From Kofleriaceae bacterium (GTDB lineage Bacteria > Myxococcota_A > Polyangia > Haliangiales > Haliangiaceae), in NCBI GenBank assembly GCA_046597055.1, contig JBKJLC010000098.1:1-47364 (forward strand): 47,364 bases of DNA. Reading direction: 5' to 3'. The notes under the pieces are model-generated. The model was not told the origin of the DNA, did not search any database, and was given only the letters and a program-made list of their open reading frames with translations. This document shows, piece after piece, positions 21,652-32,283 of the stretch. The first letter of the stretch is position 1, and the number at the start of each line of letters is the position of its first letter. A program made the position numbers and the translations under genes.

Positions 21652-22327
21652 TCAGTCGTTATCGGTGTTGGTCAGCCAGACGCGGTCGGTGCCGGCCGTC
21701 CAGTTCACGTCTTCGCTGACGAACGGCCCGAAATCGAGCGAGTAGTTCTGGCCGCGATCGACGACGTTGTCGTCCTGGCCAGTGACGATCACCGCCTGCG
21801 CCACGTTCCAGGTCCCGGGTTCGAAGGTCAGCGTATCCACGCTGGCCAGGCCTTCGCCGGGGTCGGAGCTGCTCACCCGCATCGTGACCGTGGAGGTCGG
21901 TCGCCCGGCGAGGTGAACCTGCAGCGTCGCGGCGCCTCCAGACTCGGTGGTCGTCGCCGCCCCGACGACCCGCACACCAGCGCGCTCATTGTCGACGTTC
22001 GTGAACTCGAGGCGCTGCGCTGCGGCGGCGTCGTACAGCGGGTCGCTGCTGCGCGCCTGCGCGATGATGTCGTGGCGCTGGTCGTGATCGATCACGTCGT
22101 CGTCGACGCCACAGACGGAGACCGTGCGGACGCTGTTCGGGCTCCACCGATCGAATGATACCGACGCCGGCGACACCCCCCCCCTCACCCGGAATGCTGG
22201 ATGTGAGCGCGACGGTGACGTTCGCCGTCGGCTGGGATGCGAGCTGAACGGTCACCTCGACGCACCTGCTCGAGCCCGCCGATTCTTGAGTCCTGCGGTT
22301 CCAGGAGGGCGCATCGAGGCGGGCCAT
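21652..22327 (-). pseudogene. Frameshifted fragment encoding two Calx-beta/cadherin-like repeats
   Basis: VQLASQPTANVTVALTSSIPGEG in one frame joins GVSPASVSF...GVDDDVID in another across a 9-C run (22176-22184). The second repeat, LAGRPTSTVT...SSSDPGEG...TGQDDNVVD, is intact. No signal peptide. Confidence 0.7.
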
Positions 22328-22347
22328 GCGGGGCGAGTTGCCCCGCG

Positions 22348-22440
22348 CGTTGCTTTTGGCAACGACGGATCCGGTGGCGGCGGTGCAACCTGGCGCGCAT
22401 GCTCGCGCTCGCCGCGTGGGCGTGAGGAACGCTGGTTGCA
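22348..22440 (+). promoter_or_regulatory. Putative sigma54 promoter with upstream palindromic activator site
   Basis: CGTTGC-TTTTG-GCAACG at 22348-22364; GG(22426-7)-N10-GC(22438-9) in AGGAACGCTGGTTGCA; ATG at 22454. Confidence 0.65.
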
Positions 22441-22453
22441 ATCTCCTGTGGGC

Positions 22454-24652
22454 ATGCAGCACGCGCGGCTGATGATCGCGGCGGTGACCGCAGGGGTCGC
22501 GGCCTGTGGAGGCGGCGACCCGGCCGGAGGCTACGACTACGCGCAGAGCCCCGGCGCGGCCCGGTACGCCGAGCTCTGTCAGGTCTGCCATGGTGAAGCC
22601 GGCGAGGGCGGGCTCGGTCCGGCGCTGGTCGATACCGAGCGCGGCGAGGACGAGCTGCGCGAGACGATCGCCGCGCGCATGCCGGCCAACGACCCCGGCC
22701 GCTGCACCGGTGCGTGCGCGAGCGAGGTCGCACGCTTCATCAAGGAGGGTCTGACCTCGGCCGCGCTGCGCTGCGACGCGGTGCCGCCGTCGGGGCGGCG
22801 CCTGCGCCTGCTCACCCGCCGCGAGTATCGCGCGACCGTGCGCGATCTGTTCGGCGCGGCCGCGCCGGCGATGACCTGCGCGCGCGCGACCGACTGCGCC
22901 TACCGCGACACGTGCGCTGCCGGCCAGTGCGAGGCGAGCCCCTGCGATCGCCACACGTTCGTGTTTGACCCGGGCGGGCGCACGCTGCGGTCGGTGCACG
23001 TCGCCGGCGGGTTCAACGGCTGGGCGGCCACGCCGGCGGCCGGTGGCTGGGCGCTGACCTACGCCGCGGCGACCGGGCTGTGGACCGGCACGTTCACGGT
23101 GCCGGCCGGCGACAGCGCGTACAAGCTGGTGCTCGACGAGCGCGACTGGATCGAGGACCCGCGGGCGCCGGCCGCGGTCGACGACAGCTACGGTGGGCGC
23201 AACTCGTTGCTACGGACGAGCTGCGCCGACGATGGGGGCGGCGCCGACCCGACCGCTGGCTTCCCGCTCGAGCCGCGGCCGGCCGGGTTCCCGTTCGACG
23301 ACCACGCGGCCTCGCAGGTGGTGACCGCGACCCACGTCGATGCGTTCCTGATGGCGGCCGAGGCGCTGGCTGACGACGCCGCCGATCGCGCGGCGACCCT
23401 GCACCCGTGCGATTGGGGTGGCGACCGGGCCGGCTGCACGCGCGGGCTGCTCGAGGCGCTCGGGCGCCGCGCCTTCCGCCGGCCGCTGACCGGCGACGAG
23501 CTCGCGCGCTACGCCGCGCTCGCGGTGGGCGCCGATCCCGACGAGGCGCTGGCGACCGCGATCCACGCGCTGCTGGTGTCGCCCAGCTTCCTGTACCGCT
23601 CCGAGCTCGGCGAGCGGCAGCCGGACGGCCGCTACCGGCTGACCGGCTGGGAGCTGGCCACGGCCATGTCGTACACGCTGGTCGGGACCACCCCCGACGC
23701 GGCGCTGCTGGCCGCCGCCGCCACCGGCGAGCTCGACCAGCCGGCCGGGCTCGAGCGCGAGGCGCGGCGCCTGCTGGCGTCGCCGCGGGCCCGCGAGCAG
23801 GTCGGCGAGCTGACGCTGCAGTGGCTCGGCGCCGAGGCGGTGCTCACCGCCGACAAGCGCCCCGACCTGTTCCCCGATCTCGACGCCAGCGTGCGGGCCG
23901 CGCTCGCCCGGGAGACCCGCGCGTTCGCCGCGCACGTCGTGTTCGACGGCAGCCACACCTTCGAGGAGCTGCTGACCGCCGACTACACGATCCTCGACCC
24001 GGCGGCCGCGCGCTTCTATGGCGTGCCGGTGCCCGGGCCCGACGGCATCGCGCCGTACGAGGGCCGCCGCGCCGGCGTCCTCGGTCACGCCAGCGTGCTC
24101 GCCAGCCACGCCCACAGCGATCAGACCTCGCCGATCCGCCGGGGCCTGTTCGTGCGGCGCAACCTGCTGTGTCACGAGCTGCCACCGCCGCCGCCGTTCG
24201 CCGGTGGCGTGCCCGACGTCGATCCGGCGGCGACCACCCGCGAGCGGTTCGCGGCCCACACCGCCAACCCGCGCTGCGCGAGCTGTCACCGCTACATCGA
24301 CGGGCTCGGCTTCGGCTTCGAGCAGCTCGACCCGGTCGGCCGCTGGCGCGAGACCGAGAACGGTCATCCGATCGACTCCACCGGTGCGCTGACCGACGTC
24401 GAGCGGCTGGGGACCACGACCTCGGCCGACTACGCGACCCTGCCCGAGCTCGGCCGCCTGCTGGCCGACAGCCGGGCCGCGCCGGCGTGCTTCGCGCGCC
24501 AGTACTACCGGTTCGCGCGCGGGGTGCGCGAGACCCTGGCCGAGCGGTGCGCGCGGCTTGCCATCGAGCAGCGCTTCGCCGACAGCGGCTTCGACCTGCG
24601 CGAGCTGATGATCGCCAACCTGCTATCCCCCGACTTCGCGGTGCGCCGATGA
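22454..24652 (+). CDS. DUF1592-family lipoprotein with N-terminal cytochrome c and a CBM48/glycogen-binding-like insert
   Basis: GVAAC lipobox; CQVCH..MP; RLLTRREYRATVRDLFG; insert SVHVAGGFNGW...YKLVLD..WIEDP...GGRNS; SPSFLYRSE; TSPIRRG; CASCH. Confidence 0.9.
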   Translation: MQHARLMIAAVTAGVAACGGGDPAGGYDYAQSPGAARYAELCQVCHGEAGEGGLGPALVDTERGEDELRETIAARMPANDPGRCTGACASEVARFIKEGLTSAALRCDAVPPSGRRLRLLTRREYRATVRDLFGAAAPAMTCARATDCAYRDTCAAGQCEASPCDRHTFVFDPGGRTLRSVHVAGGFNGWAATPAAGGWALTYAAATGLWTGTFTVPAGDSAYKLVLDERDWIEDPRAPAAVDDSYGGRNSLLRTSCADDGGGADPTAGFPLEPRPAGFPFDDHAASQVVTATHVDAFLMAAEALADDAADRAATLHPCDWGGDRAGCTRGLLEALGRRAFRRPLTGDELARYAALAVGADPDEALATAIHALLVSPSFLYRSELGERQPDGRYRLTGWELATAMSYTLVGTTPDAALLAAAATGELDQPAGLEREARRLLASPRAREQVGELTLQWLGAEAVLTADKRPDLFPDLDASVRAALARETRAFAAHVVFDGSHTFEELLTADYTILDPAAARFYGVPVPGPDGIAPYEGRRAGVLGHASVLASHAHSDQTSPIRRGLFVRRNLLCHELPPPPPFAGGVPDVDPAATTRERFAAHTANPRCASCHRYIDGLGFGFEQLDPVGRWRETENGHPIDSTGALTDVERLGTTTSADYATLPELGRLLADSRAAPACFARQYYRFARGVRETLAERCARLAIEQRFADSGFDLRELMIANLLSPDFAVRR

Positions 24653-25995
24653 CCCTGACCCGACGACGCCTGCTCCAGCTCGGCGGCGCCGCCGCGATCG
24701 CCGCGCCGTTCCTCCAGCCGCGGCCCGGCCAGGCCCACGCCGGCGGGGTCGCGCGCCGGCTGATCGTCTTCTACTTCCCGGATGGGGTGGTCGGTCCCTC
24801 GCAGGACGGCGACCCGAGCCGGTGGCACCCGACCGGCAACGAGACCGGGTTCACCCTGCCGGCGACGCTGGCGCCGCTCGAGCGTCACCGCGCCCGCTGC
24901 GTCTTCTTCCGGGGGCTGTCGATGGGCCCGGCCGATCAGGGCAGCCACCCGGGCGGCGCGAAGAAGCTCCTGACCGCGGTCGACGGCGGCAACGGGACCT
25001 CGATCGATCAGCGGCTGGCGGCGACGGTCGGCGCCGGCCTGCCGTTTCGCCACCTCTACCTCGGGGCCCAGGCCACCCAGAACGGCGCGTCGGGCGACAA
25101 GCACATCTCGTACGTCGCGCCCGGGATCACGACCTCGCCCGAGGACGACCCGGTCGCGGCGTTCGCGCGGCTGTTCCCCGGCGGCGGCGGTGGTGGCGGT
25201 GGCGGTGGCGACCCGCGCGCCGCCCGGCGCCTGAGCGTGATCGATAGCGCCCGGCAGGAGCTCGACACCCTGCGCGGCCGGCTCGGCACCACCGAGCAGA
25301 CCCGGCTCGACCTGCACCTGGAGGCCCTGCGCGAGGTGGAGGCGCGCATCGGCGCCACCGGTGGCGGCGGCGGTGGCACCGGCACCTGCAGCGATCCGGT
25401 GGTCGACACCACCGGGCTTAGGCCGTCGACCATCCACGCTCCCGATCGATTCCCCCAGGTCCTGCGCGCCCAGACCGATCTGATGGTGCAGGCGATGGCG
25501 TGCGGGCTGACCCGGGTCGGCGTGCTCCAGGGCTCGCACCACACCAGCGAGCTGATCATGAGCCGGTTCGCGGCCACGCCGCTGTACGACCCCGGCTTCG
25601 ACATGCGCAGCCACCAGGCCTCGCACTACGGCGCGCGCCATGATCTCGCGCGCCGCGAGTACCGCGACTTCCTCGCCCAGCGCCTGTGGTGGGTCGAGCA
25701 GTTCGCCTACCTGCTCGACCAGCTGGCCGCGCGGCCCGAAGACGGCGGCACGATGCTCGACCACTCGCTGGTGCTCCTGTGCAGCGAGGTCTGCGACGGC
25801 AACACCCACAGCCACGACGACATGCCGTTCGTGCTCGCCGGCGGTGGCTCCGGATCGATCCGCACCGGCCGGCTGCTCCGGTTCGACTACCGCCGTCACG
25901 CCGATCTGCTGCTCGCGATCGCGCGGGCGATGGGCGACGACCTCGCCAGCTTCGGCGACGCCTCGAGCGGCCCCCTGCCGGGCCTGCTGACCTGA
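24649..25995 (+). CDS. DUF1552 family protein with Tat signal
   Basis: MTLTRRRLLQLGG; FYFPDG; RLDLHLEALREVE; AMACGLTRV; HQASH; TMLDHSLVLLCSE...H..DDMP. ATGA overlap. Confidence 0.9.
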   Translation: MTLTRRRLLQLGGAAAIAAPFLQPRPGQAHAGGVARRLIVFYFPDGVVGPSQDGDPSRWHPTGNETGFTLPATLAPLERHRARCVFFRGLSMGPADQGSHPGGAKKLLTAVDGGNGTSIDQRLAATVGAGLPFRHLYLGAQATQNGASGDKHISYVAPGITTSPEDDPVAAFARLFPGGGGGGGGGGDPRAARRLSVIDSARQELDTLRGRLGTTEQTRLDLHLEALREVEARIGATGGGGGGTGTCSDPVVDTTGLRPSTIHAPDRFPQVLRAQTDLMVQAMACGLTRVGVLQGSHHTSELIMSRFAATPLYDPGFDMRSHQASHYGARHDLARREYRDFLAQRLWWVEQFAYLLDQLAARPEDGGTMLDHSLVLLCSEVCDGNTHSHDDMPFVLAGGGSGSIRTGRLLRFDYRRHADLLLAIARAMGDDLASFGDASSGPLPGLLT

Positions 25996-26607
25996 TCAGT
26001 CGGCGGCGCGGGTGATCTGCACGACCGAGCTGTGCTGGCCGTCGAGCTGACCGGTGCCCTCGAGGGACGCGCCGAACGCGAGCCCGTGTGCGCGCGCCGG
26101 GGTGACGAAGCTGACGCCGGTGACGACGAAGGTGATGCCGTCCTGCTCGTGCGTCGTCGTGCCGGCCTGGCGGGTGGTGGCACCGGTCGGGTCCCAGCTC
26201 ACCGCCAGCCTGCCGGTCGCCGGCTGGTTCGAGACCTCGCTGCAGAAGCCCTCGAGATCGCAGTCGAGCACGATCACCGTCGCGTCGATCTGCGCCGCGG
26301 TCACCGACAGCCACGCGCGCCGGAACAACCCGATGAAGCTCTGGTTGGGCACCTGGCCGAAGCCGTTCACCAGCTCGACCCGGTAGCCGTCGTCGCGCTG
26401 CTCGAGCACCTGGGCGCGGTCGTAGGCGACGAACGTCGTGCGCGCGCCGCCGCTCGCGCGCGATCGCACGACCGTCACGTGCTCCGACGTCGAGTCGTCG
26501 CCGACCCGCGCCACGTAGTCGGTGGAGCCGTAGTGAACGACGTCGGCCGCGGCCGGCACCGCGAGGGCACAGACCGAGGCAACCAGCGCGCAGGCTTCGA
26601 TTCGCAT
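25996..26607 (-). CDS. Hypothetical secreted protein
   Basis: Signal peptide ending AVPAAA-D; beta-rich mature region; codon style typical of the window. Confidence 0.6.
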   Translation of the reverse strand: MRIEACALVASVCALAVPAAADVVHYGSTDYVARVGDDSTSEHVTVVRSRASGGARTTFVAYDRAQVLEQRDDGYRVELVNGFGQVPNQSFIGLFRRAWLSVTAAQIDATVIVLDCDLEGFCSEVSNQPATGRLAVSWDPTGATTRQAGTTTHEQDGITFVVTGVSFVTPARAHGLAFGASLEGTGQLDGQHSSVVQITRAAD

Positions 26608-26690
26608 GGCCGCGAGGGTGGCTCGGAGTGCCGTGAAATGGCGGTGCGGTCGCTTACGAACGCGCGTGCGATCCGCCGATCCCGCCGGTG

Positions 26691-26810
26691 AGAGGCTGTG
26701 ATTCGTTCGAATCCCACCCTCCCTTTCGATCGGTCGGCCGCCGCCCGGAGATCCCACCCTCCCTTTCGATCGGTCGGCCGCGGTCCGGACGCCGCGCGAT
26801 CTGGACGGAA
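26691..26810 (-). repeat. Dispersed intergenic repeat, copy B, with an internal 40-bp tandem duplication
   Basis: Reverse complement of 2722-2803. Units 26711-26750 and 26751-26790 match at 37 of 40 positions. Confidence 0.85.
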
Positions 26811-26831: not shown

Positions 26832-27230
26832 TCAGCGGCGGCCGCGCAGCCGCGCGCGCCGGCGGGCGTGGGAGTTGCTGGGCCGTGGGCCGACCGGCGC
26901 GGTCCAGCCGGGCGCGGAGAACGGGGGCGGCGTCCCGTCCGAGGCGGTCCAGGTGATCGGCACCTCGCCGCGCGCGAGGGCGGCCTGGCAGTCGGGACAG
27001 TCGTGGATGATCTGCTCGAACCGCTGACGGATGCCGTGCGGCGCCAGCGCGGCGCCGTCCGCGTCGACGCCATGATCGACCGCGCGCAGGGTGGCGGCCG
27101 CGGCCGCATCGCCGCGGCGCGCGGCCCGGTCGGCGGCTTCGACCTCCTCGAGGCGGTAGCGACGGCCATCGGTGCCCACGGCGACGACGGCGCCGGTGGC
27201 AAGATCGAGATCCAGGCTCAGGTTGCGCAT
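26832..27230 (-). CDS. Hypothetical protein with HDCPDC (CxxC) motif
   Basis: Coherent ORF with a sigma54-like promoter 13 nt upstream; IHDCPDCQAAL. Confidence 0.6.
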   Translation of the reverse strand: MRNLSLDLDLATGAVVAVGTDGRRYRLEEVEAADRAARRGDAAAAATLRAVDHGVDADGAALAPHGIRQRFEQIIHDCPDCQAALARGEVPITWTASDGTPPPFSAPGWTAPVGPRPSNSHARRRARLRGRR

Positions 27231-27242
27231 GGCGAACCCGAT

Positions 27243-27258
27243 TGCAGGCGATGTGCCG
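27243..27258 (-). promoter_or_regulatory. Putative sigma54 promoter
   Basis: CGGCACA-TCGC-CTGCA, GG-N10-GC, with the ATG 13 nt after the GC. Confidence 0.55.
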
Positions 27259-27342
27259 CCGGTAACCACGCGACGCGCCGTGCGCGCCTGGCCGGCCGCC
27301 GGACAGCTGTCCGGTTCCCGGACGCGTCGGTCCGGGCCCCGG

Positions 27343-29925
27343 TCAGTCCGGGGCGGCCTGGCCGTCGAGCGACAGCGGGACCAGGTCGGCCCAGGTCGGG
27401 CCGGCCTCGAGTCCGACCACCAGCGGCACCTCGAGGATGAACGCGCGGCGCATGGCGTCGGCGGCGATCCGCGCCGCCGCGGCGAGCTCGTGGGTCGGCA
27501 CCTCGAACAGGACGTCGTCGACGACCTGGGCCAGCGGCTGGGCCTGCAGGCCGGCCCGGCGCAGGGCGCGGTCGGCCTCGAGCAGGCCGCGCCGCGCGAC
27601 GTCGGCGACCGAGCCCTCGTGGGTGGCGCGTCGGGCCAGGCGCTCGGCGTACGCGCGATCGTGCGGGTCGAGCGACGCGAGGCCGCCGATCGGCCAGTGT
27701 CTACCGGCCAGCGTCGTTACATACCCGCGCTCGCGGGCCAGGCGCAGCTGCTCGTCCTGGAACGCGCGCACCTGCGCATAGCGGAGGTCGAAGCGCGCGA
27801 TCAGCTGCTTGGCCGCGGCGGCCGAGATGTTGAGCTGCAGCGCCAGCGCGCTGGGACCCTGGCCGGCGAAGGTCGCGAAGTTGACGACCTTGCCGAGCTG
27901 GCGCTCCTCGTCGGTGATCGCCGCGGGCGGCTTCTCGAGCACCGCCGACGCGGTCAGCCGGTGCAGGTCGGCGCGCGCGCGGAGCGGCTCGACCAGCGCC
28001 GGGTCGCGGGTCAGGTGCGCCAGGACGTGAAGCCCGAGCTGGTTGTAGTCGATCGACAGGAGCACGTGGGCGGGGCGCGCGACGAACGCGCGGCGGATGC
28101 GCGCCATCTCCGGCGTGCGGCCGGGCACCCGGCCCAGATCCGGGTTGGTGTTGACCAGGTCGCCCGAGAATGACCGGGCCGGGTGGAACCGCGCGTGGAC
28201 CCGGCCGTCGCTGGCGATCCGGCTGCGCAGGCCGTGCAGCCAGCTGTCGCGCATCCGGCGCAGGAGCCGCCAGCGGAGCACCAGCGCGACGATCGGGTGG
28301 GCGTGCTCGATCCGCTCGAGCGCCTCGATCGAGGTGCTCCAGCCGGTCTTGGTATGGCTGACGATCGGGAGCTTCAGCTCCTCGAACAGCACCGCGCCCA
28401 GCTGCCTGGACGAGTTGATGTTGAACGGATGGCCGGCCAGCCCCGTGATCTCTCGCTCGAGCTCGGCCTCGATCACGGCGAAGTCGTGCTCGGCGCGGGT
28501 CAGCTCATCGGCGTCGACCGCCAGCCCGGTCAGCTCCATGCGCACCAGCGTGTCGGACAGCGCCAGGTACTCGGCGAGCCGCGCGGGTTCGACCGCGGGC
28601 GCCAGCGCATGCCAGATCGCGGCCGCGGCGTCGGCGTGCTGGCCGGCCAGGTCGCCGACCCGATCGACCGAGAGCGCCGCCCACGGCTTGCGGCCGGCAC
28701 CGACGCCGCGCACGGCATCCTCGCCGGGCAGGGCGCGGCCGAGCGCGTGCTTGGCGACCGTCGACAGGTCGTGCGGCGCCCAGTTGCTGGGCTGGGTCAG
28801 GTGCGAGGCGGCGGCCGTGTCGCCGATCATGCCGGCGAGACGCAGGCCGGCGTGGGTGAGCGCGACCACCAGGCCCTCGCGCATGTGGGCCAGCTTGGGC
28901 TGGCCGGGATTCTCGAGCCACCCGGCCAGCACGTGCGGACCCGGCAGCACCGGACCCTTGCCGGCGAACGCCGCGTACACCGCGTGACCGTCGCCGGGCG
29001 CGAACGCGAGGCCGACCAGCCGGCCGTCGTCCTCGATCACCGGCTGCACCGCGACCGGCCGGTCGCGCCACGCCGCCAGCTGCGCGTGCAGGGCCTCGGC
29101 GGTGTCGCACACCGACACCGTGGTCGCGGCGGCGTCGTGGGTCAGCAGCTCGACGAAGCCGAGCTGCTCGTGCAACGCGTTCTCGACCGCGCCCGGCGCG
29201 GGCTGGTAGCCGCATGCGTCGAGCGGTACCGGCAGCGGCCGGTGCTGGTCGAGGTGGGCCCGCGCCAGCTCGGTGCGCACCACCTCCGGATCGGCGCTCA
29301 GCGCCTTGCCGAGCCGCGGGATCACGGTGTCGAGCGCGGCCAGCGCCTGTTCGACCGAACCGTGGATCGCGAGCAGCCCGGTGGCGCCCTTGGCGCCGAT
29401 GCCCTTCACGCCCGGCAGCACGTCCGGTTCGCCGACCAGGGCCAGCCAGTCGGCGACCTGGGCCACGCCCACGCCGAACCGCTTGTGCACCATCTCCGGC
29501 GTGTAGCGGGCGTCCTTGTTGGCGTCGTACCACCACAGCCGATCGCCGACGAGCTGGGCGAAGCGCTTGTCGACCCCGACCACCACCACGTCGTCGCCGG
29601 CCTCGAGCGCGGCCCGTGCGTACGACGCGACCACGTGCAGCTCGTCGGCCGACTCGACCACGTGCAGGCCCAGCGTGCGCACCAGCTCGGCCAGCCGCGG
29701 CAGCTGCGCGCGTAGCTGCTCGGGCCACGCCGGCGGCGGGGTTGGATCGATCACGGCGACCGCGCGGGCCGGGGTCTTGAACGCGACGCCGCGGCGGATG
29801 CCACGCGCCACCGCGAACAGCCCGTTGACCGGCTCGCCGTCGCGCGCGCGGCGATCGGTCGGCACCACCTGGAATCCGCGGGCCAGCAGGTTGGTCGCGG
29901 ACACCACCAGGGTTCGGTCGCTCAT
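27343..29925 (-). CDS. polA: DNA polymerase I (family A) paralog, full three-domain length but with divergent active-site motifs
   Basis: PGVKGIGAKGA HhH; FNINSSRQLGAVLFEELKLP; motif A DYNQLGLHVLAHL; motif B RQLGKVVNF; GYVTTLAGR; motif C QVVDDVLFEV; LEVPLVV..G.TW. Confidence 0.9.
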   Translation of the reverse strand: MSDRTLVVSATNLLARGFQVVPTDRRARDGEPVNGLFAVARGIRRGVAFKTPARAVAVIDPTPPPAWPEQLRAQLPRLAELVRTLGLHVVESADELHVVASYARAALEAGDDVVVVGVDKRFAQLVGDRLWWYDANKDARYTPEMVHKRFGVGVAQVADWLALVGEPDVLPGVKGIGAKGATGLLAIHGSVEQALAALDTVIPRLGKALSADPEVVRTELARAHLDQHRPLPVPLDACGYQPAPGAVENALHEQLGFVELLTHDAAATTVSVCDTAEALHAQLAAWRDRPVAVQPVIEDDGRLVGLAFAPGDGHAVYAAFAGKGPVLPGPHVLAGWLENPGQPKLAHMREGLVVALTHAGLRLAGMIGDTAAASHLTQPSNWAPHDLSTVAKHALGRALPGEDAVRGVGAGRKPWAALSVDRVGDLAGQHADAAAAIWHALAPAVEPARLAEYLALSDTLVRMELTGLAVDADELTRAEHDFAVIEAELEREITGLAGHPFNINSSRQLGAVLFEELKLPIVSHTKTGWSTSIEALERIEHAHPIVALVLRWRLLRRMRDSWLHGLRSRIASDGRVHARFHPARSFSGDLVNTNPDLGRVPGRTPEMARIRRAFVARPAHVLLSIDYNQLGLHVLAHLTRDPALVEPLRARADLHRLTASAVLEKPPAAITDEERQLGKVVNFATFAGQGPSALALQLNISAAAAKQLIARFDLRYAQVRAFQDEQLRLARERGYVTTLAGRHWPIGGLASLDPHDRAYAERLARRATHEGSVADVARRGLLEADRALRRAGLQAQPLAQVVDDVLFEVPTHELAAAARIAADAMRRAFILEVPLVVGLEAGPTWADLVPLSLDGQAAPD

Positions 29926-30007
29926 GCCGGGGCCATCCTATCGCGCGTGACGACTCGCCGGCCCGCACCTCGCCCACCGCGACCGGGCCGGAGTAGAATG
30001 GCCCCGC

Positions 30008-31369
30008 GTGGAGCTGTCCGCCGCCATCCGAGGAGTCCGCTACCGGTTCGAGTCGGTGAAGGACGTGCTCGCCAAGGCCAACCCGCCCAAGAGCGGCGAC
30101 GACCTGGCCGGGGTCGCGGCGCGCGACGCGGTCGAGCGGGTGGCGGCGCGCGCGGTGCTGGCCGACCTGACCCTGGCCGAGCTGCGCGCGAGCCCGGTGG
30201 TGCCGTACGAGGACGACGAGGTGACCCGGCTGGTCGAGGACGACCTCGACGAGGGCGCCTACCGCGCGGTCGCGCACCTGAGCGTCGGCCAGTTCCGCGA
30301 GTGGCTGCTCGAATCGTCGACCAGCGGCGCGACCCTGCGCGCGGTCGCGCCCGGGCTCACGCCCGAGATGGCGGCCGCGGTGTGCAAGCTGATGTCGAAC
30401 CTGGACCTCATGACGGTGGGCGCGCGCTGCGAGGTGGTGGTGCGCGCCAACAACACGCTCGGCCTGCCGGGCCGGCTGTCGTCGCGGGTCCAGCCCAACC
30501 ATCCGTCCGACGACGTGCAGGGCATCCTGGCGTCGGCGCGCGAGGGCCTGGCCTACGGATGCGGCGACGCGGTGATCGGGATCAACCCGGCGACCGACAC
30601 GCCGGCGTCGACCGCCGCGATCCTGACCGTGATCGACGAGCTGCTGAAGGCCAACGAGTGCCCGACCCAGCACTGCGTGCTGTCGCACCTGACCGTCCAG
30701 CTCAAGGCGCTCGAGCTCGGCTGTCCGATGGACCTCATGTTCCAGTCGCTGGCCGGCACCGAGGCCGCCAACCGCGCCTTCGGCATCGACGTCGCGCTGC
30801 TCGACGAGGCGTGGGCGACGATGAAGGAGCGCGGCACCACCCGCGGCCCCAACGTCATGTACTTCGAGACCGGGCAGGGCTCGGCGCTGTCGTCGGCCAC
30901 CCACCACGGCGCCGATCAGGTCACGGTCGAGGCGCGCGCGTATGGCCTGGCCCGCCGCTATCGGCCGTTCCTGGTCAACACCGTGGTCGGCTTCATCGGG
31001 CCCGAGTACCTCGAGGACGGGCCCCAGATCACCCGGGCCGCGCTCGAGGATCACTTCATGGGCAAGCTGCTCGGGCTGCCGATGGGCTGCGACGCCTGCT
31101 TCACCTATCACGCGCGCATGAGCCAGGATGAGCTCGAGAGCCTCAAGGTCCTGCTCGGCGCCGCCGGCTGCACCTACCTCATGAGCCTGCCGGTTGGCGA
31201 CGACATCATGCTCAACTACCAGTCGACCAGCTTCCACGACATCCCGTCGGTGCGCCGGCTGCTCGGCAAGCGGCCGACGCCCGAGTTCGACGCCTGGCTC
31301 GAGGCGCGCGGCATCACGCGGGACGGCCTGCCCGGGCCCCGGTTCGGCGACGTCGAGGTGCTGCGGTGA
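30008..31369 (+). CDS. eutB: Ethanolamine ammonia-lyase large subunit
   Basis: KSGDDLAG; RVQPNHPSDD; GDAVIGINP; MYFETGQGSALS; VNTVVGFIGPEYL; LEDHFMGKLLGLPMGCD; DDIMLNYQSTSFHD. Confidence 0.97.
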   Translation: MELSAAIRGVRYRFESVKDVLAKANPPKSGDDLAGVAARDAVERVAARAVLADLTLAELRASPVVPYEDDEVTRLVEDDLDEGAYRAVAHLSVGQFREWLLESSTSGATLRAVAPGLTPEMAAAVCKLMSNLDLMTVGARCEVVVRANNTLGLPGRLSSRVQPNHPSDDVQGILASAREGLAYGCGDAVIGINPATDTPASTAAILTVIDELLKANECPTQHCVLSHLTVQLKALELGCPMDLMFQSLAGTEAANRAFGIDVALLDEAWATMKERGTTRGPNVMYFETGQGSALSSATHHGADQVTVEARAYGLARRYRPFLVNTVVGFIGPEYLEDGPQITRAALEDHFMGKLLGLPMGCDACFTYHARMSQDELESLKVLLGAAGCTYLMSLPVGDDIMLNYQSTSFHDIPSVRRLLGKRPTPEFDAWLEARGITRDGLPGPRFGDVEVLR

Positions 31370-32283
31370 GCGCGACCCGCACCCTGGTCGCCGCGCTGCG
31401 CGCCGAGCTCGGCGCCAGCGATCCGATGCCGCCGCGGGTGGCGCTGCCGCCGGTGGTGGCCCCGCCGGTGCGGGTCTACGCGCCGCGCCGCGAGGCGAGC
31501 CGGTCGGCGCGCGAGGCGGCCCGCCATACCACCGCGCTGGTCGGCATCGGCCACGTCGGCACCCGCTACGCGACCGACGTGGTCCTGCAATTCCAGGCCG
31601 AGCTGGCGGTCGCGCACGAGGCGGTCGCGGCCGAGCTGCCCGAGGGCTGGGCCGCCGAGCGCGGCTTCCTGCCGCTGCGGTCGCGGGTGACCGATCATCG
31701 CGAGTTCTTGCTTCGTCCGGATCTCGGACGACGCCTCGACGGCCGGTCGCTCGAGCGCCTGCGTAGCGACGCCGACCGCAAGGTCGACGTCCAGATCATC
31801 CTGGCCGACGGCCTGTCGGCGGTCGCCTGCATGGGCAGCGGGCCGACGCTGGCGTCGACCCTGCGGGTCGCGTGCGAGCGGCGCGGGCTGCGGGTCGGTT
31901 CGCCGGTGTGCGCCAAGTTCGCGCGGGTGTGGCTCGAGGACGAGATCGGCCAGGAGGTCGAGGCGCGGGTGGCGGTGATCCTGCTCGGCGAGCGGCCCGG
32001 GCTCGGCACCGGCGATGGCCTGTCGGCCTACCTGGTCTACCAGCCGCGGATCGGCAAGACCGATGGCGACCGCAACATGATGAGCAACATCCATCCGCGC
32101 GGCACGCCGGTCGAGCCGGCCGCCGAGCGGCTGGCCTCGCTGGCGGCGTCGATGATCGAGCAGCAGACCAGCGGGGTCGCGCTCGATCTCGCGCGCGTGC
32201 CCGGCTGCAGCGACGAGGGTCGCGGTTACCGCGCGCCCCAGGTGCGCCAGCGCCTGGTCGAGCGGCCGCGAGGCGGACGCTAG
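31366..32283 (+). CDS. eutC: Ethanolamine ammonia-lyase small subunit
   Basis: FLLRPDLGRRL; ILADGLS; ILLGERPGL; LSAYLVY; RNMMSNIH. GTGA overlap with eutB. Confidence 0.95.
   Translation: MSATRTLVAALRAELGASDPMPPRVALPPVVAPPVRVYAPRREASRSAREAARHTTALVGIGHVGTRYATDVVLQFQAELAVAHEAVAAELPEGWAAERGFLPLRSRVTDHREFLLRPDLGRRLDGRSLERLRSDADRKVDVQIILADGLSAVACMGSGPTLASTLRVACERRGLRVGSPVCAKFARVWLEDEIGQEVEARVAVILLGERPGLGTGDGLSAYLVYQPRIGKTDGDRNMMSNIHPRGTPVEPAAERLASLAASMIEQQTSGVALDLARVPGCSDEGRGYRAPQVRQRLVERPRGGR

Follow-up and report, generated by a model that had tools for sequence, protein, structure and literature searches.

The window analysed here, the whole 47,364-nt contig JBKJLC010000098.1 of a Kofleriaceae bacterium (assembly GCA_046597055.1), encodes on its minus strand, at 27343..29925, a paralog of DNA polymerase I (Pol I), protein P0001, which belongs to a family of homologs referred to below as the G family. 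Alignment of this family indicated that the set of residues serving polymerase chemistry is kept and the set that checks the substrate is replaced, including the steric-gate glutamate, which has become glycine. The reading we favour, at a probability of roughly 0.55, is that the paralog polymerises nucleotides actively and on a template, that its sugar gate is open and that its surface has been rebuilt to suit another duplex geometry. Judged by its residues, it probably makes or handles an unusual nucleic acid.

Active-site residues and their conservation

The open reading frame (ORF) is intact, as an earlier sequence-only reading of this DNA had stated, and runs from an ATG start through 860 codons to a stop, with residue 1 of the 860-aa protein lining up with the N-termini of orthologs in the alignment. 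Its G+C content at the three codon positions (0.80/0.49/0.95, the last being GC3) in a window of 73% G+C identified it as a genuine coding gene. Residues are numbered below as in E. coli Pol I (from NC_000913), which was aligned with the paralog and 269 retrieved homologs; the paralog was also aligned separately to M. smegmatis Pol1, and for Taq equivalents of the E. coli positions we take the standard correspondences to hold.

Both catalytic aspartates of family A are present in motifs A and C of the window copy (D626 and D803, equivalent to D705 and D882), as are the triphosphate binders H734, R754, K758 and F762, in agreement with the sequence-only reading. Motif A (DYNQLG, 28033..28050; this and the following motifs lie on the minus strand) keeps the catalytic D626 and carries G631 at the steric-gate position E710, encoded by the codon at 28033-28035, where the Glu-to-Gly change had been placed before. 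Motif B (the O helix, RQLGKVVNFATFAG, 27862..27903) keeps R754, K758 and F762 and has A687 at Y766 (codon 27865-27867), so that the R, K and F of the family A pattern Rx3Kx3Fx3YG are found with Ala in place of Tyr. Motif 2 (SGDLVNTNPDLGRVP, 28123..28167) carries D589 at R668, followed by S670V, S671N and the changes N675D, Q677G and N678R that convert NLQN to DLGR. The helix Q motif (RLARRATHEG, 27613..27642) retains R841 and shows I844R, N845R (R766), P847T, I848H and Q849E (E770), and motif C (QVVDD, 27514..27528) retains D803 between V802 at H881 and D804 at E883. The swaps listed by the sequence-only reading (R668D, NLQN to DLGR, Y766A, N845R, Q849E and H881V) were all recovered; its list was correct and missed the minus-strand orientation, E883D, I844R, I848H and the destroyed 5′-nuclease site described below. 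Many of these positions have assigned roles in Pol I: substrate binding or catalysis involves D705, E710, Y766, R841, N845, Q849, R668, D882 and E883, the backbone is touched by N675, N678 and K635, correct pairs are recognised through the minor groove by R668, N845 and Q849, and Y766A/S reduces fidelity (PMC10520511).

Residue counts over 126 G-family and 123 canonical Pol I sequences showed that most of these changes are fixed in the family. The steric-gate position is Gly in 126/126 G-family sequences, and Glu in 119 and Asp in 4 of the 123 canonical ones. QLG, with L709 in every sequence, ends motif A throughout; R844, R845 and E849 were likewise found in all 126 sequences, A766 in 125 and H848 in 124, and in motif 2 R678 was invariant and D675 present in 125/126. 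Equally uniform were the retained residues: D705, D882, H734, R754, R682, R841 and Q708 occur in 126/126, K758 and F762 in 125 each, the lone exception being an alignment gap, and E883 in 125, and the polymerase ligands are conserved across sequences down to 47% identity. Among 80 species-level genome loci picked on other motifs and kept from 199 stretches, motif A reads D[YF]xQLGL in 80/80 and helix Q reads [RK]R[AG]THE[GA] in 72/80, the pattern having hit elsewhere or failed in the other 8. Thus, by alignment, the minor-groove readers are replaced family-wide by a new charged set, DLxR in motif 2 and RRATHEG in helix Q.

Three changes of the window copy were not traits of the family. R668 is variable (R in 73, H in 49, D in 3 and Q in 1 of the 126 sequences), as is H881 (L 73, V 29, H 20, I 3, A 1), and E883D occurs in the window copy alone; Q677 (G, S or A) and R712 (H or Y) vary as well. 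The earlier claim that the changes are selective and conserved thus holds for the family-wide switches and fails for R668D, H881V and E883D. Of the motifs it had proposed for a conservation check, DYNQLG is borne out in its QLG and RRATHEG in R844, R845, H848 and E849, each present in at least 124/126 sequences, and QVVDD is not. Its further claim that the template and minor-groove residues are all swapped was too broad, the swaps themselves being real: among 121 columns conserved at ≥85% in the 123 canonical polymerase domains, 75 are identical in the G family (including R841, R836, R682, R631, T609 and S608), 28 are switched to an equally conserved residue and 18 are relaxed.

Domain layout, nuclease sites and predicted fold

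The polymerase domain (thumb, palm and fingers; residues 451-860, 27346..28575, minus strand), delimited by PF00476, the predicted structure and Foldseek, matched the Pfam model PF00476 (DNA_pol_A) over residues 474-847 with 311.4 bits against a cut-off of 34.3, which places the paralog in family A. It is preceded on the same strand by a FEN-like 5′-nuclease domain (residues 1-262, 29140..29925), to which the Pfam 5′-3′ exonuclease N and C domains matched weakly (E ~1e-10), and by a vestigial 3′-5′ exonuclease-like domain (residues 263-450, 28576..29139) with a faint match to PF22619, a Pol I exonuclease-like family. The best solved relatives were full-length M. smegmatis Pol1, Bst and Taq. 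Compared with the bacterial Pol I enzymes of E. coli, Taq, Bst and M. smegmatis (PolA1), the paralog has the same three-domain order and fold at about 30-35% identity, and the catalytic Asp pair, the O-helix R, K and F and most thumb and template contacts are common to both; it differs from them in its Gly gate, Ala at Y766, new minor-groove residues and destroyed FEN metal site. Unlike PolA1, it coexists with a true polA and scores below the cut-offs of the NCBIfam Pol I equivalogs NF004397 and TIGR00593 (504 versus 720 and 428.7 versus 600).

The FEN metal site of the window copy has been dismantled: D13 is Ser, the acidic cluster E113/D115/D116 is lost, D140 is Arg and D185 is deleted. The same holds across the 111 family sequences that include the N-terminus, where other residues stand in for the E113/D115/D116 cluster, D13 is Ser in 101/111, D140 is Arg in 111/111 and D185 is deleted in 97/111. 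The TFR..YK..R region is also shorter by about 15 residues, and the helix-3-turn-helix (H3TH) motif PGVxGIGAK is retained. The paralog thus lacks the active FEN-type 5′-nuclease expected of Pol I orthologs. No DEDDy 3′-5′ exonuclease motifs were recognisable by alignment in the paralog, nor in the canonical polA of the same genome. Judged from the aligned ligands, both nuclease active sites of the G family are gone.

An AlphaFold2 model built on a 106-sequence alignment had a mean predicted local distance difference test score (pLDDT) of 94.8, a predicted template-modelling score (pTM) of 0.89 and no disordered segments. Foldseek matched it to the Bst large fragment with a template-modelling (TM) score of 0.88, normalised to target length, and a root-mean-square deviation of about 3.1-3.4 Å, and also to full-length Taq and M. 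smegmatis Pol1. Structure modelling, one of the checks proposed with the sequence-only reading, thus returned a confident Pol I fold, and in the model the paralog keeps the entire three-domain architecture. Within the exonuclease-like domain, the family alignment also revealed a conserved SHLTQPSNWAPHDL stretch (P0001 residues 374-388, about 28762-28806, minus strand) without counterpart in canonical Pol I, which could be a new interaction surface.

Distribution, origin and genomic context

The search for a second polA, another of those checks, covered the 8.4 Mb of the same genome (303 contigs, 94% complete) and found a canonical gene on contig C188. It matches PF00476 at 504 bits, carries the motifs TGRISS, NLQN, DYSQIE, YG, QG and HDE and has an intact FEN N-terminus (MERLHLIDGH...), so the window gene is an extra copy and not the sole polA. 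Homologs of the extra copy were numerous: in a protein database clustered at 90% identity, more than 120 clusters were 76-84% identical to it in the polymerase domain, and where named these came from Kofleriaceae, Myxococcales or Deltaproteobacteria metagenome-assembled genomes (MAGs), and a 50%-identity library contained further members at 46-55% identity (P0121, P0122, P0124 and P0125). G-family copies were present in at least 53 of 101 genomes of the same order, or at least 51 of 99 when the unpublished G059 and G067 are set aside, and in 3 of the 12 genomes of the window's genus, one of these being a fragment. A 301-genome sample of the phylum gave members at 51-53% identity in other classes (G182, G114, G132 and G299), which share the same motifs, and fragments in G107. 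The motif-seeded scan that yielded the 199 encoding stretches covered 185,579 species genomes; all 80 loci kept are from genomes named as myxobacterial, and all are MAGs save the cultured Labilithrix luteola DSM 27648 (63% identity). Every one of the 50 genomes with a full-length or split paralog had, among the matches listed, one or more additional Pol A matches, a tally that leaves out three fragment-only holders.

Maximum-likelihood analysis of the polymerase domain (78 rows, quick search, LG+C20) recovered the G family as one clade with a Shimodaira–Hasegawa-like approximate likelihood ratio test (SH-aLRT) support of 100; its stem is long, at 0.79 substitutions per column, and its terminal branches are short. 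The family nests within a second lineage of Pol I, here called the I clade, which is distinct from canonical polA (SH-aLRT 99 for I and G together), and independent support for this kinship came from N675D, N678R, S670I/V and NFAT..GQG, which are common to both. In contrast to the G family, the I clade keeps E710, Y766, N845, Q849, H881 and an active-looking FEN site, as in P0130, P0127 and the loci L021-L023 and L041-L043. On this sequence evidence the G family is a Myxococcota-restricted subfamily of family A that arose by duplication from the second Pol I lineage.

Within Myxococcota the I clade represents a second, full-length lineage of Pol I that reads DLQR for NLQN and DWSQIE for DYSQIE, and it further includes P0131, P0135, P0137, P0139, P0140, P0142 and P0145. 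Canonical polA accompanies it in the genomes that were examined for one (G056, G004 and G018). Both G-family and I-clade copies occur in G056, G114 and G182, the first of which also has a canonical copy, and no I-clade copy was found in the window's genome. P0133, which groups as sister of the G family with a support of 94, combines a degenerate FEN site with canonical E710, Y766, N845, Q849 and H881; from its sequence it is possibly a transitional form, and this combination hints that nuclease loss came first.

Whole-gene ratios of nonsynonymous to synonymous substitution rates (dN/dS) for the three least-diverged G-family pairs were 0.15, 0.14 and 0.12, compared with 0.17 and 0.21 for close canonical polA pairs. 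The purifying selection that the sequence-only reading had asked about is thus present in the G family, at a level comparable to that of housekeeping polA. Ratios of 0.3-0.6 obtained for distant pairs were dropped as inflated because synonymous sites saturate (proportion of synonymous differences, pS, about 0.3-0.6 at GC3 about 0.95). Within a single genus (12 genomes, 66 genome pairs), mean identity of the polymerase domain was 76.4% for the paralog versus 81.0% for canonical polA, and the ratio of nonsynonymous to synonymous differences (pN/pS), paralog versus canonical, was 0.37 versus 0.33 in the polymerase domain and 0.49 versus 0.36 in the FEN domain.

The window's paralog was closer than canonical polA to other genomes in 13/13 comparisons. 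Stronger constraint on the paralog was rejected as the explanation, the opposite being true within one genus. In comparison with G034 and the genomes of genus g2, the paralog carried by the window's genus falls, in the tree, among sequences of another genus, to which it is closer than the canonical polA is. Lateral acquisition of the window paralog within the bacterial family is likely from these sequence data, given the 13/13 comparisons, the nesting and the presence of the gene in only 3 of 12 congeners.

Upstream of the gene, a −10-like box, TAGGAT (29935..29940, minus strand), has its end 9 nt from the ATG. Of 22 orthologs, 15 have a TAnnnT box 13-22 nt upstream of the start codon, compared with 3/132 control windows, which suggests, from sequence, a leaderless or very short-leader mRNA; the orthologs whose upstream regions were compared include L004-L019. 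Scans for consensus sigma-70 promoters and terminators returned 0 sites, and no SOS-like box was apparent by eye in the 22 upstream regions. The ethanolamine ammonia-lyase genes eutB and eutC (30008-32283, plus strand) are divergent from the polymerase gene, with start codons ~80 bp apart. Downstream of the paralog lie two co-directional ORFs on the minus strand (26832-27269 and 25996-26757, with coding-like GC3 values of 0.88 and 0.89) that matched no Pfam or PADLOC family and had no homolog in other paralog loci or in the rest of the genome; the second has a hydrophobic stretch near its N-terminus, possibly a signal peptide, as judged by eye only. Next to them, the plus strand (22124-25995) encodes a PSCyt/PSD multi-domain protein with DUF1592, 1588, 1595, 1587, 1585 and cytochrome c domains and, downstream of it, a DUF1552 (HXXSHH) protein, a gene pair typical of Planctomycetes and Myxococcota. 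Alkaline phosphatase and TauE genes are further neighbours in the window. A defence system was considered and rejected, PADLOC having yielded only a generic 21-bit RTasPolA match.

We surveyed the flanks of 20 loci, called neighbours in 16 of them and searched the resulting 64 neighbour ORFs against Pfam. A zinc-type alcohol dehydrogenase and a dienelactone hydrolase lie beside the paralog in 4 of the 16 loci (L008, L009, L011 and L019), with no obvious functional link to it.

Candidate activities of the paralog

The sequence-only reading had suggested a repurposed enzyme, such as a ribonucleotide-adding or template-independent nucleotidyltransferase, or a nucleotide-binding pseudo-polymerase. 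A repurposed enzyme stands, because the substitutions are conserved, dN/dS is far from 1 and a second polA is present; the template-independent and pseudo-polymerase options are disfavoured by the retained residues, as set out below. On the reading we prefer, the paralog would be a catalytically active, template-dependent nucleotidyltransferase that is unable to exclude the 2′-OH and no longer reads the B-form minor groove. An open gate combined with lost B-form reading would lead to incorporation of ribonucleotides, or to the use of RNA-containing (A-form) primer-templates, with low base fidelity, and the dead FEN domain with its retained H3TH motif would bind nicked or gapped DNA. As to its role in the cell, gap filling or repair under scarcity of deoxyribonucleoside triphosphates (dNTPs) is our guess.

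The same Glu-to-Gly gate change is found in the Taq Stoffel variants SFR3/AA40 (E615G) and in human Pol theta E2335G. Use of ribonucleoside triphosphates (rNTPs) rose 10^3-10^4 fold in Taq Stoffel carrying E615G and four other changes (PMC4215692), and Pol theta E2335G gained efficient NTP incorporation (PMC6158600). By analogy with these enzymes, rNTP use by the paralog is plausible. The engineered mutants retain the Tyr equivalent to Y766 and are canonical in their minor-groove residues, whereas the Gly gate of the G family is natural, clade-wide and combined with Y766A and with changes that remodel motif 2 and helix Q. In T7 RNA polymerase the residue in register with the gate of the paralog is also Gly (D537+5, G542); the enzyme further has a His at N781+3 (H784) that resembles H769 of the paralog (R766+3), and the same R..K spacing in motif B. 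Beyond these motifs no sequence relationship to T7-type RNA polymerases was detectable; the paralog has the Gly of the single-subunit RNA polymerases and not their Tyr, and its N-terminus is FEN-like and exonuclease-like instead of a promoter-recognition domain. We advance, tentatively, a more specific version of the preferred reading, in which a natural descendant of Pol I uses ribonucleotides or is specialised for RNA duplexes. Here the Gly gate, Ala766 and the RRATHEG/DLxR set would be coherent for substrates with a 2′-OH and partly convergent with T7 RNA polymerase (Gly542, His784), and the FEN domain, though dead as a nuclease, would have been kept to bind nicks or gaps.

Other accessory polymerases differed from the paralog in family or architecture. 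Mycobacterial DinB2, of the Y family, is a natural bacterial repair polymerase that has no aromatic steric gate and uses rNTPs; it belongs to a polymerase family unrelated to that of the paralog. APEX/PolA2 is, like the paralog, an accessory family A enzyme beside Pol I, with an inactivated 3′-5′ exonuclease and suspected low fidelity (PMC10201439, PMC12926913). PolA2, which occurs in Actinobacteria only, has no FEN domain (PMC12926913), whereas the paralog has a FEN-like domain and relatives in Myxococcota; PRK14975-type NF0115xx models of NCBIfam scored it at 50-140 against cut-offs of 600-1139, and it therefore falls outside PolA2. No steric-gate loss in PolA2 is reported in the available portions of PMC10201439 and PMC12926913, and these portions of the two surveys mention neither a G-family group nor a natural Gly gate. 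In the literature covered, which did not extend to the A-family supplement sheet of PMC12926913, there was no myxobacterial Pol I paralog and no natural Gly gate, and we found no earlier description of the G family.

Several observations weigh against the preferred reading. We infer both the activity and the sugar preference of the paralog from its residues. R668, a substrate-binding or catalysis residue of Klenow (PMC10520511), varies in the G family (R/H/Q/E/D) and is Asp in the window copy, and R668D together with E883D could make the window protein less active than its relatives. Engineered steric-gate mutants by themselves yield short RNA products only (PMC4215692). At the position where the G family has Ala, T7 RNA polymerase has Tyr639, so the site is not simply RNA-polymerase-like. 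This tyrosine is the residue with which T7 RNA polymerase selects rNTPs. The 126 sequences come mostly from one bacterial family and are non-independent, and the tree was a quick search with long branches around the G/I junction. Within one genus, the polymerase domain of the paralog was more conserved than that of canonical polA in only 8/66 pairs, and its FEN domain evolved faster (65% versus 80% identity) and was more conserved in 0/66. Finally, neither a conserved partner that would indicate a pathway nor a DNA-repair context was found among the paralog's neighbours in the window and in the 16 other loci, whose gene neighbourhoods differ.

A polymerase that acts on DNA only, with low fidelity or in translesion synthesis, and places dNTPs on damaged or mispaired DNA with ribonucleotides incidental or irrelevant in vivo, appears rather doubtful to us. 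It would account for the altered R668, E710, N845 and Y766, the last known as Y766A/S, all of which are sites where Klenow fidelity is lowered (PMC10520511), for the absence of both nucleases, any proofreading included, and for an accessory gene as patchily distributed over order and genus as this one. However, known family A bypass enzymes keep the gate Glu, for example E2335 of Pol theta (PMC6158600), and the fixation of R844, R845, H848, E849, D675 and R678 in at least 124/126 sequences suggests new specific contacts; an SOS-type or repair gene context was also missing from the neighbour Pfam scan and the upstream regions.

A catalytically silent scaffold or sensor that binds DNA or nucleotides is unlikely. 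Both nuclease sites are dead, the substrate-positioning residues E710, Y766, Q849 and N845 are all altered, R668 is variable and the window copy bears R668D and E883D, as might be expected of such a protein. Pseudoenzymes usually lose their catalytic ligands, however, and here both aspartates, E883, R754, K758, H734, F762, Q708 and R682 are invariant or nearly so down to 47% identity and in the members from other classes. What speaks against the pseudo-polymerase proposed earlier is that these proteins have retained all their polymerase ligands although those of the nuclease were lost.

We regard a terminal (ribo)nucleotidyl transferase that works without a template as very improbable. Its precedent is Pol theta E2335G, which in Mn2+ extends single-stranded primers with NTPs and no template (PMC6158600), and the residue that stacks at the templating position, Y766, is Ala in the paralog. 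The retained template, thumb and duplex contacts (R841, R836, S608/T609, R631 and R682) argue against it, as do the absence of Pol theta-like inserts from the alignment and the conserved duplex-binding H3TH motif of the FEN domain. A decaying duplicate or annotation artefact with chance substitutions, for which only the atypical motifs and the NCBIfam scores under the Pol I cut-offs speak, is already refuted by the intact ORF with its GC3 of 0.95, dN/dS of 0.12-0.15, the confident fold and the recurrence of the same substitutions in 126 homologs and 80 genome loci.

One review holds that every DNA polymerase relies on a steric gate (PMC4215692), and the gate Glu has been treated as universal in family A, from which a natural clade departs that has fixed Gly and has also lost the Tyr766 stack and the fidelity checks in the minor groove. 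If the reading of an active polymerase with an open sugar gate is true, evolution, and not the laboratory, would have re-tuned sugar and duplex specificity while conserving the chemistry, and the G family would be a ready scaffold for the synthesis of RNA, xeno nucleic acids (XNA) or modified nucleotides. On the more specific version, with ribonucleotides or RNA duplexes as substrates, it would be what nature offers in parallel to the Taq and Pol theta mutants evolved in the laboratory to synthesise RNA. The cultured carrier L. luteola DSM 27648 makes the question directly testable. For the myxobacteria, the paralog would add a third Pol I-type enzyme to DNA and RNA metabolism.

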